Source: a virus (Duplodnaviria; Heunggongvirae; Uroviricota; Caudoviricetes). Taken from it: a stretch of 13,542 bases of DNA. The notes beneath the pieces were generated by a model, which was not told where the DNA came from, searched no databases, and saw nothing but the letters and a program-made list of their open reading frames with translations. The stretch's first letter is position 1. Each line of letters opens with the position of its first letter. Location of the stretch: positions 1-13,542 of the IMG/VR virus record IMGVR_UViG_2690315994_000027; one strand, 5' to 3'. Both the position numbers and the translations under genes were made by a program. Shown here in pieces: positions 735 through 13,542 of the stretch.

Positions 735-1811
735 TCAGAGCAATAAGTACGTTTTTTCTCTCTCATCAAGATACATTTTTGTTGTCTTCTCCGATGTGTG
801 GCCAAGTAGACGCTGAGCAAATTCTTCTCCACATGTTTCTTTGTACAATCGTCCAGCCAGACTTCTGATCTCGTGAAAAGTTGGTGGGTTTTCACTGAAC
901 TGGATACCTGTTAATTTTCTGGCTGCGACAAATTTTTTTGTCAGGCCATCCGGGTGAATGCTGCCGTCAGGGCTGTTTTTTCTAATTCCGGCACTGATTA
1001 GAAAATCTCCCCGGCTTACCAGGCGGCACCGTTCAACTACTGTACCAAGACGTAGACCAGCGACAGGAAGGCTGAGTGACAGGGGGATAGCAATCATCAT
1101 TCCTGTCTTAATTTGCCTGATGTGGAGACGATCATCATAAATCTCACTGAACCGCATATTCGTTATGTCTTCGCGACGTTGTCCTGTTACAAGGGCTAAG
1201 TCCATAGCTAATGGGAACCATGCCGGAAGTTGATCTGCTGCCTCCCTGATGCAGTTGTATGTCTTTAGTTTCAGTCGTTCTCTTGTAACTACTATTTTCG
1301 GTGCTCTTGTTGGCGTTACTGGATTTTGAGATATACGTCCTTCAACAATGGCCTCGCGAAACATATCAGACAACACAGAACGCATTGATCCTGCCATTGT
1401 GTTTTTCCCTCCTTCAATCCACAAATCAAGAAATTCGGCAATATGGCGAGTGGTTATTTCTGTCAGTAAAATCCCTCCTAATTTTTCTTTTATTGTCTCC
1501 AGTTGATTTACCCGAGTTTTATAAGTATTTCTGGACACTTTTCTCCTTATAAGAATTGTTTTGTAACGTTCAATCCAGTCTGCCATAGTAAATGAGTCGA
1601 ACCCTTTAAGTTTTTCAATTAAGGCAGCAGGAGAGTAGTTTTTGTATATATAATGATTTGCTTCAATTGCCTGCGCTACTGCATCTCTTCTTGAAATTTT
1701 ACCTAGTGTAAATTCTTCTTTCGTCAGAGGGTTGCGCCAGTAATATGCTTTGTCTCTCCTTCGATATGTTAAGTTTCTAGGCAAATTGGGATCGTATTTT
1801 TTCCGCTGCAT
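735..1811 (-). CDS. int: Tyrosine site-specific integrase (lambda Int family)
   Basis: 358 aa; N-terminal arm-binding-like region ([27 protein letters not shown]) resembles lambda Int; C-terminal catalytic motifs ([11 protein letters not shown]... [14 protein letters not shown]) with terminal Tyr; adjacent to the att arm. Confidence 0.95.
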
Positions 1812-3405: not shown

Positions 3406-6076
3406 TTGCATACTCCTTAGCCCAGCGGGGCAGTGATAACGTTTTAATAGCTGGCCATTCATCGGTATTCAGGCAGTCAGCCAGGGTCCTCAGATTGCGG
3501 TGATATTCCTGCTGGCCTGCCAGTTTTGCTTCTTCGCCCATCATGAAAATCTCAACCGGGTAACGTCCGCATTCAACAGTTGTGCTGGCAACCAGAAAAA
3601 CGAAAGTTGGCAGCACACCAAACTGTGCTTCATAACCGTCACTGTAGAATGCATCCTGAACGTGATAGCGGTAGTCGTAATAAGCCGTTTTGAATCGTTG
3701 AATATCCGCTGTGGTTTTCACGTCCATGATCCAGTGAAATTCAGGGATAATTTTGTCCGGACGGCACCGACACAAAATTCCTGTTTCAGGATCTTCCCAG
3801 TAAATTGATGATTCAGCGTGTCCGGCGCTTTCAACAAGCCATTGACCCAGCGGCAAAGCCATAACGCTCTGATACATGAGTTCAATTTTCCGGCCTTCTT
3901 CGGCAGTGATAACCGTTTTTCCTGTGCTTGCGCATTCCATCAGAAACGCTTTCTCCTCTTCTTTTCCGGCGGTTGTACGGCGGTTAAATTCAGGTGCCAC
4001 GATAAAGCGGTTACTGAATTCTTCCGGTTCAAGTACACGGCAGTGGAAAGCGGTTCCTAAATCGAGCGTTTTTGTCTTTGTGGTGTCCACTGGGGCATTT
4101 TTACGCCACAAATACAGAGCCGGAGTATCAGCAATGTCGTCGAGCTGAGACTTACTGACACCGGGACCCGCGTGGTAATTCTCATTCGAAATTCCGTAAT
4201 AAATACCAGGCTCTATGTCTCCTGCGATTACGGGATCTGCGACTTCGCCAGTTTCATCACTGCAATCGCGATGCGGATCGCTGCCAGCATTCTCCTTGTG
4301 TGGATGTTCAGCGCCTTCCATTTTCTCCGGCTCATTTTCCCGAACTTCAACCTGATTCTCGTCATCGAATGTTTCCTGATATGTTGCGTCGCCCATCACC
4401 GCACCACAGTCAGGGCAGTTATCCCCGCCAGACTGACCGCAGGCGGTGCAAACTTTCTCCGTTTCCTGTTGTTGCACTACTGGCTCAGGCTGTTTCGTTT
4501 CTGGCTCGTTTTGTTGCGTATTTGGGTCGTTCTGTTCCGCTTTCTGGTCGTTCTGTTCCGTTTCTGGCTGATTCTGGTATATAGAGTCGCGGGTCTGGAT
4601 CCCCTTAACCCATTTCGGGTCATTCGGGTCGCTAATCCCTTCAACAAATTCTCCGCGAGAGGCAGCCAGTAATTTGTCTGCATCGACAGGATTTTTTGGC
4701 GGAATGTTTTTCCGGGCTTCATGGAGTTCTGCCCGCAGTTCCAGATATTTCGCATCAACAGAATTTACCTGTGACTGAGCATCCAGCGGCTGCGTGTCCT
4801 GATGATGTTCAGTTGCATCCGGTTCCACTGTTTCAGCCGTTGCCTGTTCATCTGCCATTGCGCCAGATGGTTGCGGTTTTTCTTCGTCATCCTGTTTTTC
4901 TTCTTCTGTTACACGCTGCGGCATCGGGGCAGAGGAGCGACCACAGGCAATATCCACGATTTCTGGATCAGGGTTGGCATGATCGGTTTCAATAAGTACC
5001 TTGTTCAGATATTCAGTGACATGCGCAGTGATGACCTCGATACCAATTGGTGCTTCTTTCACGGCCGCAACCACGATGGCACGGGAATAATCCAGCCCAC
5101 CAGGCATGGCGATGAATTTGTCGCGGAAAACAGAAAAGGGCGGTTTATTTTCAGCGATAATTTCCTCGACACGTTTAGCGTGTGCCGGATGAAGGTTATA
5201 AATGTCCACGTCCATTGAACGAGCCAGTACGCCAGTGGCTACGTCGCGCGCCAGTGACGTCAGATCGTGAACGAAACCTTCGCCGCGATCGGTGAGGTTC
5301 CCGCCGCCAGCATTAGCGCCGGAAGCCGTGCGCGTGATGCGTGAAACACGATTTCCTTTCATCCACTCTTTTGTCAGCAGACCGCGATCGGTGTAGTCTG
5401 CGTCCAGGTATGCTTCGAAAAAAGCAGTCATCAGCCCCAGACTTGAATTGCCAGGATTAGGGAAAACTTTGTCAGTATCACGAACCAGTCTGTGAAGATC
5501 GCGAATCTCCAGCGGGTCGAGCAGGCTGGTTTTGTGGGAAACAGCCAGGGCAGTAACAGCTGGTAGTTCTTCAGCCCGTGCAATATGTAATACCTGGAGT
5601 TCGTCACGTGAAACGTGCGTTACCGGTTTTTCGCTGCCGTGTTGAGCAAGCCAGCGAATGGACAGCTCTTGGCCAGAAATCGGGAGTGGCATATTCTCCT
5701 CAATCTCAGTCATGTCTTCGCCATTAACATTGGTATTGTCAGTGCTGGCTGTTTTGTCCTGCGCAGAGGATGAGGGCGCGATAAATACCATTGTGATGCC
5801 ATCTTCCCCGCCTTTTTCGTAACGGTTGCAGAATTCCGTATCAAATACGCCTTCTGGTGGGAGGTCATCAACAACGGGCAAATTGACGCGAACAGGTTTT
5901 TTGAAGTCATCTTCATCGTATCCAGCATCGTCAATCGCAACAGCACCACGGGAGATGGCAATGGATAATTTTTTCGCTTCAGCCCAGTAGAAACCGCCTT
6001 TAATACCGAGACGTTTTCTTACTTTGTCATTTTTTGCTTCGTAATACAGTGGGTAAACTTGTTTATCGGTGCTCAT
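3398..6076 (-). CDS. recE: RecE exonuclease VIII (5'-3' dsDNA exonuclease)
   Basis: 892 aa; long central and C-terminal stretches ([42 protein letters not shown] ... [10 protein letters not shown]) match my recollection of RecE; the N-terminal about 100 aa and a linker repeat appear to differ from the K-12 protein as I remember it. Confidence 0.95.
4484..4567 (-). repeat. Four in-frame 21-bp tandem repeats inside recE (heptad peptide repeats [28 protein letters not shown])
   Basis: Direct repetition visible in the DNA (GGTCGTTCTGTTCCGCTTTCT / GGTCGTTCTGTTCCGTTTCTG / related flanking units); frame preserved. Confidence 0.7.
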
Positions 6077-7691: not shown

Positions 7692-7865
7692 CTTTTTTCC
7701 CCTTAACGCCGGGTGGCGGAACGTTTTATCTACTGCGCTTTGTATCAATCAACAACTGCCGTCATGTTCGTATGCCTCAGGCTGGCTACTTAGCCCTGTT
7801 CAGTGGCTGGATAACTCGAGGAATTGTCCAGCCGTTCTCTGGTGGGGCGTTGTTTGGATATGCTT

Positions 7866-8749: not shown

Positions 8750-9168
8750 AAATCAGGCATGAGCACATCGAATCAGTGTTGTTAGCCCTGGCAGCCGAAA
8801 AAGGGCAGGCGTGGGTCGCTAACGCAATTACTGAAGAATATCTGCGCCAGGGGGGCGGCGAATTGCCCCTTGTACCAGGCAAGGACTGGAACAATCAGCA
8901 GAATATCTATCACCGTTGGTTGAAAGGTGAAACGAAAGCGCAAAGGGAAAAAATTCAGAAACTGATCCCTGCGGTTCTGGCAATTCTTCCGCGCGAGCTG
9001 CGTCACCGACTCTGCATCTTCGATACCCTGGAACGCCGTGCATTACTGGCGGCGCAGGAAGCGTTGAGTACGGCAATTGATGCGCATGATGATGCAGTCC
9101 AGGCCGTTTACCGGAAAGCACATTTCAGCGGTGGTGGGTCGCCCGGTGATTCTGTGGTGGTGCATTGA
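8746..9168 (+). CDS. ydaT: YdaT-like protein (140 aa), positional and reported functional analogue of lambda CII
   Basis: MKIRHEHIESVLLALAAEKGQAWVANAITEEYLRQGGGELPLV...; length and sequence match my recollection of Rac YdaT; ATGA coupling to the Cro-like gene. Confidence 0.75.
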   Translation: MKIRHEHIESVLLALAAEKGQAWVANAITEEYLRQGGGELPLVPGKDWNNQQNIYHRWLKGETKAQREKIQKLIPAVLAILPRELRHRLCIFDTLERRALLAAQEALSTAIDAHDDAVQAVYRKAHFSGGGSPGDSVVVH

Positions 9169-9226
9169 AGGTGGGGAACTATGCCGAATCGTATTTATTC
9201 GGCATTGGAAGATGTGTTATGTGCGA

Positions 9227-9442
9227 TTACGATTTTTTACCTGTTGCGCATTCATACGCTTTTGTAAGTGCGCTTATGAGCCCTGGAACATTTGCTATAG
9301 GTATATTCACTGATTCAGCAATTCCATATTCTGGATCAGGACTATTAGGGCATTCGTCAACGGTGATTATGAGCGCGTCAATTTCTTCGGTGTATTCAAC
9401 TGTTATTTGAGATTGGTGGGGGGCGGCGATAAATGTTTGCAT
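9227..9442 (-). CDS. Hypothetical small acidic protein (71 aa, about 10 D/E versus 3 K/R), opposite strand to the flanking replication operon
   Basis: ATG at 9442 preceded by AGGAGGAAGG; fills the otherwise empty 290-bp gap between ydaT and the O-like gene; predicted own promoter at 9507-9536. Confidence 0.45.
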   Translation of the reverse strand: MQTFIAAPHQSQITVEYTEEIDALIITVDECPNSPDPEYGIAESVNIPIANVPGLISALTKAYECATGKKS

Positions 9443-9460
9443 CCTTCCTCCTAAGGTTAA

Positions 9461-10276
9461 GTGGTTGTTATGTCGGCACTACCTTACATGCAATTGTATA
9501 TAGCTGATTATCTGGCAGATACCATGCATTTGTCTACAGAAGAGCACGGCGCGTATTTGTTGCTGATGTTCAATTACTGGCAAACAGGAAAGCCAATACC
9601 CAAAAACAGGTTGGCAAAAATTGCCCGTCTGACTAACGAGCGATGGGTTGATGTTGAACCATCCTTGCGGGAGTTTTTTTGTGATAACGGCGACGAATGG
9701 ATGCATCTTCGGATTGAGGAAGATCTGGCATCTGTCAGAGAAAAATTAACCAAAAAATCAGCCGCAGGAAAAGCATCTGTTCAGGCCAGAAGAAGCAGAA
9801 AGGAAGCAGATGTTCAAACAAAACAAGAGAGAAATTTAACAGGTGTTCAAACAGATGTTGGAGTGGTGTTTGAACATGATGCCAACACAAAGGCAACTAA
9901 TAAAGATACAGATAAAGATCTAAAAACAGATCCCCCCCTAAATCCCCCCCGGGGGAATCGAGGTGTCAAAAAATTTGACCCTCTGGATATTTCTTTGCCG
10001 AACTGGATTTCTGTCTCGCTTTGGCGTGAGTGGGTTGAATTTCGCCAGGCATTGCGAAAACCGATTCGAACGGAGCAGGGCGCTAACGGGGCTATACGGG
10101 AACTGGAAAAATTCCGTCAGCAGGGTTTTACACCTGAGCAGGTGATTCGACACAGCATCGCCAATGAATACCAGGGCCTGTTCGCGCCGAAAGGTGTTCG
10201 GCCTGAGACGTTGCTCCGACAGGTTAACACCGTCTCGTTGCCGGACAGTGCGATCCCGCCAGGCTTCAGGGGGTAA
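9461..10276 (+). CDS. Replication initiation protein, lambda O-like / DUF1376 (YdaU-like)
   Basis: 271 aa; position immediately upstream of the DnaC-like gene; central low-complexity linker containing iteron-like repeats; start may be GTG 9461 or ATG 9470 (both have weak RBS). Confidence 0.75.
   Translation: MVVMSALPYMQLYIADYLADTMHLSTEEHGAYLLLMFNYWQTGKPIPKNRLAKIARLTNERWVDVEPSLREFFCDNGDEWMHLRIEEDLASVREKLTKKSAAGKASVQARRSRKEADVQTKQERNLTGVQTDVGVVFEHDANTKATNKDTDKDLKTDPPLNPPRGNRGVKKFDPLDISLPNWISVSLWREWVEFRQALRKPIRTEQGANGAIRELEKFRQQGFTPEQVIRHSIANEYQGLFAPKGVRPETLLRQVNTVSLPDSAIPPGFRG
9507..9536 (-). promoter_or_regulatory. Predicted minus-strand promoter inside the 5' end of the O-like gene (position of lambda pO/oop)
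   Basis: Minus strand: -35 TAGACA (plus 9531-9536), 18-bp spacer, -10 GATAAT (plus 9507-9512). Confidence 0.35.
9809..9930. other. Candidate replication origin inside the O-like gene: iteron-like repeats plus an AT-rich stretch
   Basis: TGTTCAAACA at 9811-9820 and 9844-9853, inverted copy TGTTTGAACA at 9867-9876, followed by the AT-rich segment 9885-9930; analogous to lambda ori within gene O. Confidence 0.4.
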
Positions 10277-12308: not shown

Positions 12309-12665
12309 ATGGAAATAAAACCAGAAGATGAGTTAAGTAATATTGTTTTATTTCCGGTAAAAGAGGATGACCCACGTAATCAGGTTAATTTTCTTTATGA
12401 GCCATCGGAAAGACCATACTGCCATCACGCTTCTGTCCGGGTTGACGAAAAAGAGCGTCAGGTCCGCTGTAAAATCTGCGGTGCAGTTGTGGAGCCATTT
12501 GACTGGATGCTCTCTGTGGCGAAAAGAGAAACCAGGCTGGCAGATGATGTAAAACTATTGCGCCAGGAGGAACAGGAAAGGCGAAAAAATATAGAAAAGC
12601 TAATTCAGATTGAGCGTAACGCGAAAGCGCGGATACGCAGGGCGACAAAAGCCAGAACTGAATAA
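12309..12665 (+). CDS. Hypothetical zinc-ribbon protein with a basic coiled-coil-like tail, 118 aa
   Basis: ATG at 12309 with AAGGAGAGG upstream; C-H-H...C-x2-C cluster (PYCHHASVRVDEKERQVRCKICG) and a K/R/E-rich C-terminus. Confidence 0.65.
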   Translation: MEIKPEDELSNIVLFPVKEDDPRNQVNFLYEPSERPYCHHASVRVDEKERQVRCKICGAVVEPFDWMLSVAKRETRLADDVKLLRQEEQERRKNIEKLIQIERNAKARIRRATKARTE

Positions 12666-12760
12666 TTAAATTTAGCACTGCAAATAAAATTTAATCCTTA
12701 ACCGGAGGGATTTCTGCATCCTCAGAACATCAGGAGGCCGCCCGAAAGGGCGGTAGTTAA

Positions 12761-12943
12761 ATGTGAAAGTTTAAAATAATTATTGAAACGGGAATAGCCG
12801 GTGGAGATTTCGAGGATGAATTCGAAGTGGATGATGATGCGACGCCTGATGAAATATATGACGAAGCAAAAGATATTTTCTTTAACTACTGCAATTACTC
12901 ATATCACGAAATAAAAGACGAAGAGGAAGAACAAAATGGCTGA
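12761..12943 (+). pseudogene. Acidic small ORF with ATG-TGA at codons 1-2 (start-stop), then 58 sense codons in frame; possible nonsense pseudogene or non-canonical initiation
   Basis: SD AGGAGG 12732-12737, GNRA-loop hairpin CCGCCC-GAAA-GGGCGG 12738-12753, ATG 12761, TGA 12764; in-frame continuation KFKIIIETGIAGGDFEDEFEVDDDATPDEIYDEAKDIFFNYCNYSYHEIKDEEEEQNG ends at TGA 12941-12943, overlapping the next ATG (ATGGCTGA). Confidence 0.35.
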
Positions 12944-13112
12944 TTTTGGTTCAACTAAATACAACGTCAGTTTTGAAGAATGGCATGAACTGTTAATGGA
13001 CTATGCAGAGTTACGTGGTGGCAGTGCTGCTGATGCTGAAGCATGGCGTGATGATTATGAAGCAGGAAAAACTCCGGTCGAAGCATATTGTGATGAGTGG
13101 GGCGATGAATGA
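12936..13112 (+). CDS. Hypothetical small acidic protein, 58 aa, not in the supplied ORF track (<60 aa)
   Basis: Hand translation MADFGSTKYNVSFEEWHELLMDYAELRGGSAADAEAWRDDYEAGKTPVEAYCDEWGDE; GAGGAAG 6 nt upstream; stop overlaps the next gene start (ATGA). Confidence 0.5.
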   Translation: MADFGSTKYNVSFEEWHELLMDYAELRGGSAADAEAWRDDYEAGKTPVEAYCDEWGDE

Positions 13113-13468
13113 GCGAGATTAATTATCAGGAAGGGCATGAAAAGGCAGGGCAGGCAAAACCAGTGGCATGGCGATATCGCTACGTGAAAAAAGGCGTTAC
13201 GGACTTTCAGGAGAAGATGTGGGTTGGTGACTGGAAATATGTACCGACAAAAGAGGATTGTAACGACAGGCCGAACTATGAAATTCAGGCGTTATTCACT
13301 GCCCCGCCTGTGCCACTGACACCAGAAGGATTGATTAAAGCAGTGCGCTTCTATGAACTGGTTAAGCGTGAGAATCCGCCAGTTGAAACCGGAGCATGGA
13401 AAGACGCTGTTGACTGGGTGCTCAAAGAGGCTTGCCAGGCTGTAAACATTGGCATCAAAGGAGAGTGA
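13109..13468 (+). CDS. Hypothetical protein, 119 aa
   Basis: ATGA-coupled to the upstream small ORF; no recognised motif. Confidence 0.65.
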   Translation: MSEINYQEGHEKAGQAKPVAWRYRYVKKGVTDFQEKMWVGDWKYVPTKEDCNDRPNYEIQALFTAPPVPLTPEGLIKAVRFYELVKRENPPVETGAWKDAVDWVLKEACQAVNIGIKGE

Positions 13469-13470
13469 GA

Positions 13471-13542
13471 ATGCAAATTTCACCGGTTACTCTTCGTGTT
13501 GCGAAGGCGTTTATATCCAGACATCACCGACACAATAAACCC
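13471..13542 (+). CDS. Hypothetical protein, 5' fragment only (runs off the window end)
   Basis: ATG at 13471 with AAGGAG 7 nt upstream; MQISPVTLRVAKAFISRHHRHNKP...; truncated by the window. Confidence 0.4.
   Translation, partial: MQISPVTLRVAKAFISRHHRHNKP

Follow-up and report, generated by a model that had tools for sequence, protein, structure and literature searches.

The right end of the stretch of phage DNA analyzed here (the window; 13,542 nucleotides, IMG/VR record IMGVR_UViG_2690315994_000027) carries three small, tightly packed open reading frames, ORF1, ORF2, and ORF3, which a preliminary description had treated as a chain of co-expressed proteins and as a candidate anti-defence or DNA-mimic cluster. 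The locus raises two questions: whether the three frames form a single functional unit, and what their products might do. Our answer is mostly a correction, as the frames represent catalogued mosaic hypothetical genes, one of them apparently dead in the window, rather than a single functional unit.

Prophage Context of the Three Frames

The gene order in the window runs from yebY through the integrase, excisionase, DUF1187, ralR, recT, recE, and kil genes to a repressor/cro pair, downstream of which follow a YdaT-family gene, replication genes, the DUF1627 and DUF977 genes, a gene for a 118-aa zinc-ribbon-like protein, and ORF1–ORF3. These assignments were based on near-identity to the annotated prophage of Escherichia coli strain 12089 (L084, NZ_CP159875.1), which shares 97.7–98.3% identity with most of the window. 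Judged by its gene content (RecE/RecT, RalR, and Kil), the element is a Rac-type lambdoid prophage of E. coli inserted beside yebY, and gene order places ORF1–ORF3 in the predicted rightward early operon, as a mosaic part that follows the replication genes and precedes those of the hok/nin/Q type. It was therefore fair to place the frames where the nin-like region of a Rac-like prophage begins, as the earlier assignment did, both by gene order and by the near-identity to strain 12089. In related prophages, ORF3 is followed by a gene for an XF1762 family protein, genes for small hypothetical proteins, and hokD, and then by either DUF968/RusA/Q or DUF1367/DUF1364/DUF1133 genes. The features of the region are listed in Table 1.

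Table 1. Features in and around the ORF1–ORF3 region (window positions, unless another locus is named).
Feature	Coordinates	Strand	Basis and remarks
118-aa protein (137 aa from an upstream GTG)	12309–12665	+	CxxC-containing segment CKICGAVVEPFDW, basic tail; annotated as hypothetical
Intergenic leader	12658–12760	+	Travels with the ORF1–ORF2 cassette; left mosaic boundary at ~12658
AGGAGG and hairpin	12732–12737 (AGGAGG); 12737–12754 (hairpin)	+	7-bp stem, GNRA tetraloop; ends 6 nt before the ORF1 ATG
ORF1, putatively inactivated DUF7167 gene	12761–12943	+	Alignment to phages 689R5 and pPE4; CGA>TGA at codon 2 (12764–12766)
ORF2, intact 58-aa acidic protein	12936–13112	+	ATG-initiated ORF; PHROG 519
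ORF3, intact 119-aa near-neutral protein	13109–13468	+	ATG-initiated ORF; PHROG 660
XF1762 family gene start	13472–13542, cut by the window end	+	RefSeq annotation of relatives; 3 nt past the ORF3 stop
Frameshifted ORF3, example (cluster 15)	L004:~4174–4431		33 of 85 related loci

A Nonsense Allele at Codon 2 of ORF1

The start of ORF1 reads ATG TGA AAG in the window, as opposed to ATG CGA AAG in its relatives, which encode 60 aa when intact. Beyond this stop the frame continues without interruption from 12767 up to the TGA at 12941–12943, with no ATG, GTG, or TTG before the GTG at 12827, which is the next in-frame canonical start and would give a product of 38 aa. The 58-codon frame described previously thus has no start codon because it belongs to a nonsense allele. 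When Arg2 was restored, the resulting 60-aa protein (net charge −15, D/E 33%, aromatic 15%) matched the whole 60-position Pfam profile of DUF7167 (PF23768) with 54.2 bits (cutoff 24.4; E = 1.5e-14) and phrog_1997 with an E-value of 2e-29; the intact 60-aa orthologue WP_001224665.1 bears the RefSeq name “DUF7167 family protein”. The window copy therefore belongs by profile to this phage and prophage family of unknown function, but its reading frame is broken at the start.

The extent of conservation at codon 2 was assessed in 83 related loci, comprising 80 IMG/VR loci chosen through ORF2 and the loci L001–L003. The ORF1 start was recovered in 82 of these, one of which has an ATA start codon, and codon 2 was CGA in every case. 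Arg2 is likewise invariant in the DUF7167 family alignment, in which Klebsiella and Enterococcus phage members are included. The exact string of the TGA allele was not found in IMG/VR or in the GTDB species representatives. Among 1698 complete E. coli genomes with the region, the exact 71-mer around the mutation occurred in one, that of strain 12089, in which PGAP calls no gene over ORF1. When assemblies encoding the exact ORF3 protein were retrieved, 10 further ones came up, all of which read ATG TGA, likewise with no gene called over ORF1; nine of them are identical to the window over 12761–13468, and some carry different upstream replication modules. A sequencing error was rejected as the source of the TGA, because at least 11 assemblies besides the window carry the allele (strain 12089 and these 10), indicating that it is real and inherited.

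Taken together, the sequence data identify the window copy of ORF1 as a pseudogene of the DUF7167 family, with a stop at the invariant Arg2 codon, and the TGA allele must almost certainly be regarded as null or as strongly hypomorphic. Some product may still arise, either from a low level of UGA read-through or from re-initiation at GTG 12827, the latter yielding the 38-aa protein without roughly the N-terminal third. Other damaged forms of the gene exist as well, as public protein sets contain many truncated or chimeric ORF1 products, including some in which Ea22-type N-termini are fused into ORF1. The inherited nonsense allele is the sole local peculiarity of the cluster in the window; in all other respects the cluster is ordinary for a lambdoid prophage, and its members already appear in the catalogues, as sequence families without an assigned function. 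The preliminary description had found no family that could be named for any of the three proteins, and this needs revision, since ORF1 belongs to Pfam DUF7167, ORF2 to PHROG 519, and ORF3 to PHROG 660.

ORF2 Encodes a Small Acidic Protein of a Widespread Phage Family

The ORF2 product is strongly acidic (net charge −12, D/E 28%, aromatic 16%) and matched phrog_519 with an E-value of 4.5e-23, in an alignment limited to positions 76–137 of the 143-position profile. Its AlphaFold2 model (pLDDT 81.6) contains helices at residues 13–27, 34–42, and 47–55, and we confidently predict a three-helix bundle. No significant fold match to any solved protein was obtained with this model; comparison with BFVD gave matches with TM-scores of 0.65–0.89. 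A profile search of 1.84 billion proteins yielded 66 representative relatives, most of which are stand-alone proteins of 50–65 aa. In the family alignment (A5), the conserved residues are W16, W37, G44, and P47, and no acidic position reaches 90%.

The family is represented in 202 phage records, about 170 of them from virulent phages, and the matches listed are mostly from Salmonella, Klebsiella, and Escherichia phages of about 150–160 kb. The window protein shares 55–60% identity with proteins of these Ackermannviridae-sized phages; Cba120 is the one listed phage whose taxonomy was read as Ackermannviridae, the others being Ackermannviridae-like in size. The relatives within PHROG 519, such as orf183 of Cba120, W6B140 of Erwinia phage Ea9-2, and I0J310 of Dickeya phage LIMEstone1, are uncharacterized and none has a known function. 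The label “DUF5419” attached to one phage homologue was not reproduced by Pfam and was rejected. In Cba120 the homologue lies 3′ of the major capsid gene, and neither there nor in Morganella phage Mecenats66 is it flanked by a DUF7167 gene.

ORF1 and ORF2 Form a Conserved Cassette, and ORF3 Is a Separate Mosaic Piece

To compare gene content at this position, + strand ORFs of 85 loci were clustered. ORF1 adjoined ORF2 in 81 of the 85 loci; the upstream neighbour varied, with at least 10 different genes in this position. Among the complete genomes of E. coli, ORF1 was found in 1871 of 5426 (2178 places, 6 of them on plasmids) and ORF2 in 1904 of 5426 (2214 places, 6 on plasmids), so that the pair is present in about 35% and the frames are clearly conserved. 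The genes that flank the pair behave differently. Phage matches to the window break at ~12658 and ~13130, other matches cover only ORF3 or its 3′ part, and many phage matches start at query position 59, which corresponds to window position 12658. Downstream of ORF2, an intact ORF3-type gene was found in 50 of the 85 loci and a frameshifted version in 33, with Ea22-like genes or hok in a few. ORF3 matched in 2163 complete E. coli genomes, over at least 80% of its length in only 770. By these comparisons, ORF1 and ORF2 constitute a constant two-gene cassette in E. coli lambdoid prophages, while ORF3 is an independent mosaic piece. The comparison of gene content thus confirmed constancy for the ORF1–ORF2 pair, but not for its upstream neighbours or for ORF3, and the proposal that all three genes belong to one unit does not hold.

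Elsewhere the two genes are found apart. DUF7167 genes without ORF2 occur in phages of Klebsiella and Enterococcus, and also in a lambdoid phage of Klebsiella whose following gene encodes an unrelated Cys-rich protein. Since each gene occurs alone in other phages, an obligate partnership was rejected. Both families reach distant phages at 30–50% identity. At codon positions 1, 2, and 3, the variable sites number 10/10/28 in ORF1 and 4/5/19 in ORF2, and negative charge is retained in both families (median net charge −10 for ORF2 relatives, −10 to −13 for distant members of DUF7167). The codon-position bias and the conserved acidity together show that ORF1 and ORF2 encode real proteins.

As described previously, the region encodes two acidic proteins and one of 119 aa; the latter is not acidic (net charge −1, pI 5.9, D/E 15%, aromatic 12%). 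ORF3 matched phrog_660 with an E-value of 1.3e-45 and had 914 homologues, including architectures of 148, 170, 191, and 209 aa, some of which carry PF13935 or PF04448. The ORF3 core (approximately residues 17–113) is 84–95% identical to the C-terminal or central part of such proteins, and in two proteins with the ORF3 core, P0181 and P0229, PF13935 lies in the N-terminal extension. ORF3 itself has no Pfam match and thus no Ead_Ea22 domain (PF13935) of its own. It therefore shares its core with fusions of Ead/Ea22-like (PF13935) and DUF551 (PF04448) proteins, and has in common with them the MSEINYQ-type N-terminus that serves as a mosaic joint, but differs from Ead/Ea22-like proteins in lacking the Ea22-type N-terminal segment. 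Structure prediction for ORF3 gave an unusable model (pLDDT 46). The ORF3 frameshifts and the truncated or chimeric ORF1 products show frequent recombination and decay at this position.

Gene Overlaps, the Conserved Leader, and a Predicted Hairpin

The overlaps reported previously are present: the terminal TGA of the ORF1 frame lies within ATGGCTGA (12936–12943), which overlaps the ORF2 start, and ORF2 and ORF3 share ATGA (13109–13112). The ORF3 stop is separated by a 3-nt gap from the next ATG at 13472, and in some relatives ORF1 terminates with a TAA that lies 1 nt upstream of the ORF2 ATG. Stop/start overlaps on the same strand suggest the arrangement of a translationally coupled operon, and in intact copies ribosomes would pass from gene to gene through them. 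Of the view that all three frames are expressed as a unit, the tight packing and the overlaps stand, but with ORF1 null in the window the chain is reduced to ORF2 and ORF3. Only these two would be made in full here, and ORF2 would have to use its own ribosome-binding site, a GAGG located 9 nt 5′ of its ATG.

The leader upstream of ORF1 is conserved in at least 80 loci; no sigma-70-like promoter was detected on its + strand and no terminator was called in it. It contains an AGGAGG located 23 nt 5′ of the ORF1 ATG, which is too distant for a normal ribosome-binding site, and a hairpin present in both the MFE and the centroid folds. The loop sequence is either GAAA or GGCA among the loci, and in L006 and L083 a G-C stem pair is replaced by A-T on both sides; some variants contain stem mismatches. 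The recombinant leader of L007 and L032 retains a shorter hairpin. According to the fold, the 18-nt hairpin would leave an effective spacing of ~6 nt between the AGGAGG and the ATG. It may therefore bridge the translation start, or may equally be an RNA-processing or stability element. In phage T4, genes 38 and 25 have split ribosome-binding sites bridged by a hairpin, and the AGGAGG–hairpin–ATG layout of ORF1, predicted here from sequence, resembles them. A terminator was rejected for this hairpin, as it has no T-run and was not called as one.

Searches for Function and Comparison with DNA Mimics

Sequence and profile searches of ORF1–ORF3 against PDB, Pfam, NCBIfam, and PADLOC returned only DUF7167 for ORF1. 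In PADLOC no family was matched at E ≤ 0.01 by ORF1, ORF2, ORF3, or the flanking small genes, and every PHROG match of the three proteins is labelled “unknown function”. Pfam, NCBIfam, and PDB held no characterized anti-defence homologue of any of them. Homology to housekeeping proteins, which would have spoken against a role in counter-defence, was likewise absent from Pfam, NCBIfam, PDB, and PHROG. A literature search with DUF7167, PF23768, the RefSeq accessions, and signature peptides, which included the supplements of one accessory-gene screen, found no mention of these proteins.

The Asp/Glu densities of ORF1 and ORF2 are high, as expected of DNA mimics, and the two proteins are like Ocr, ArdA, lambda Gam, T7 gp5.9, and UGI in their small size and strong negative charge. 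A further likeness is early-operon expression, which for ORF1 and ORF2 is suggested by position. The resemblance is compositional only, as neither protein resembled any solved DNA mimic or inhibitor in sequence or profile, nor did the ORF2 model in fold. Because acidity is common among small phage proteins, it is weak evidence, and with no assignment from homology, fold, defence library, or literature, the anti-defence or DNA-mimic reading stays a guess.

Possible Roles of the Acidic Pair

The reading that we favour, with somewhat less than even confidence, is that ORF1 and ORF2 are accessory early proteins which bind a basic protein that handles nucleic acids in the host or in a rival element. 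In this mechanism, each of the two small, strongly acidic proteins would stand alone, independently of the other, and be produced early in the lytic cycle; they would block or modulate the protein that they bind, and would thus serve as accessory factors of host takeover or counter-defence, being neither structural nor essential for replication. True DNA mimicry would be one possible version of such inhibition. The occurrence of the TGA allele over several prophage backbones, the ORF3 frameshifts, and the truncated ORF1 forms suggest dispensability, as expected of accessory genes. Against a host target stands the fact that the searches made gave no positive evidence of a target or of anti-defence activity. 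The position of the Cba120 homologue of ORF2, downstream of the capsid gene, is also not an obvious early or anti-defence position.

A bolder form of this proposal is that DUF7167 and the PHROG-519 protein represent two novel families, unrelated to each other, whose small acidic members inhibit nucleic-acid enzymes or defences of the host and which are common to lambdoid prophages of E. coli and to large phages with a virulent lifestyle (Ackermannviridae, Guernseyvirinae, and Enterococcus Herelleviridae), with the first gene of the cassette translated via a hairpin-bridged ribosome-binding site. We consider this unlikely as a whole. Should the acidic pair prove to inhibit an enzyme of host defence or repair, a function would be at hand for two very common families, of which one occurs in roughly one third of the E. 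coli genomes sequenced and the other is found, in addition, in many Ackermannviridae-type virulent phages, which are candidates for therapy; DUF7167 and PHROG 519 would then be obvious candidates for anti-defence screens.

The main rival, which seems to us rather doubtful, is that ORF1 and/or ORF2 modulate the phage’s own replication or recombination, as a partner of a nuclease or annealing protein or in replication timing, instead of acting on the host. The cassette lies directly 3′ of a replication module (DnaC-like, DUF1627, and DUF977), and VLCpiS11a and 37P2, two Klebsiella phages of the Guernseyvirinae, have a DUF7167 gene that overlaps the 5′ end of a DUF2800/PD-(D/E)XK nuclease gene, within a replication-recombination module in which the nuclease is followed by a Gp2.5-like annealing protein and DNA polymerase. 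A phage-internal role would fit this overlap equally well. However, the nuclease link was seen in one phage lineage only; the Enterococcus neighbour labelled “exonuclease” proved to be an ASCH/DUF3850 protein, and a general link between DUF7167 and exonucleases, beyond the Klebsiella Guernseyvirinae, was rejected. The E. coli upstream neighbour is moreover highly variable, and the null allele persists in several backbones.

DNA mimicry in the strict sense, in which ORF1 and/or ORF2 would mimic the phosphate backbone of DNA and inhibit restriction enzymes, RecBCD, or enzymes of that kind, as the mimics Ocr, ArdA, Gam, and T7 gp5.9 do, appears improbable. Net charges of −15 and −12 on about 60 residues, acidity conserved across both families, and a size similar to that of the smallest DNA mimics on record are consistent with it, whereas the failure to match the fold or sequence of solved mimics argues against it. 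So do the residues conserved throughout the ORF2 family, which are aromatic, glycine, or proline and not acidic.

That the frames are functionless selfish ORFs or decaying prophage DNA is very improbable. The null ORF1 of the window, the many frameshifted ORF3 loci, and the truncated or chimeric ORF1 products would be explained by decay, but the third-position bias, an ORF2 protein that is 100% identical in most of the related loci, and the retention of both families, with their core residues conserved, in distant virulent and temperate phages would not. Least credible of all is a benefit to the lysogen (“moron” genes) or superinfection exclusion, with expression from the repressed prophage, since the location between mosaic junctions and the cassette’s own leader are outweighed by the lack of a + strand promoter-like site or a flanking terminator, an orientation and tight packing as in an early operon, the absence of PADLOC matches, and the presence of both families in strictly virulent phages.

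Genes Flanking the Cassette and Other Features of the Element

The gene for the 118-aa zinc-ribbon-like protein was present beside the cassette in ~60 of the 83 loci; its product had no family match in PADLOC, and the basic tail is probably a coiled-coil. On the other side, the full-length relative of the XF1762 family gene (L003:13871–14362) showed a weak match to Pfam Mom (E = 1.3e-4; 22.1 bits, below the 27.1 cutoff). Mom is the DNA-modification and anti-restriction family of phage Mu, and the gene adjoining the cassette may thus encode a candidate DNA-modifying acyltransferase. The leftward early operon contains ralR, the anti-restriction and toxin gene of Rac (Lar/RalR), together with DUF1187, at ~2167–2542 on the − strand of the window, as placed by identity to L084:3222–3597. 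A known anti-restriction function is therefore already on board elsewhere in the element.

Compared over its length with the strain 12089 prophage, the window is ~98% identical except at 9168–9915, where the start of the replication-initiator region has been replaced, and locus L100 carries the identical ORF1–ORF3 allele behind a lambda-P-type replication gene. Both arrangements show module exchange around an unchanged cassette. At positions 7708–7929 of L084, RefSeq names the Rac kil product “cell division protein FtsZ”, apparently an annotation slip, as Kil inhibits FtsZ. The integrase gene is frameshifted in strain 12089; the corresponding ORF of the window (735–1811, − strand) is intact.
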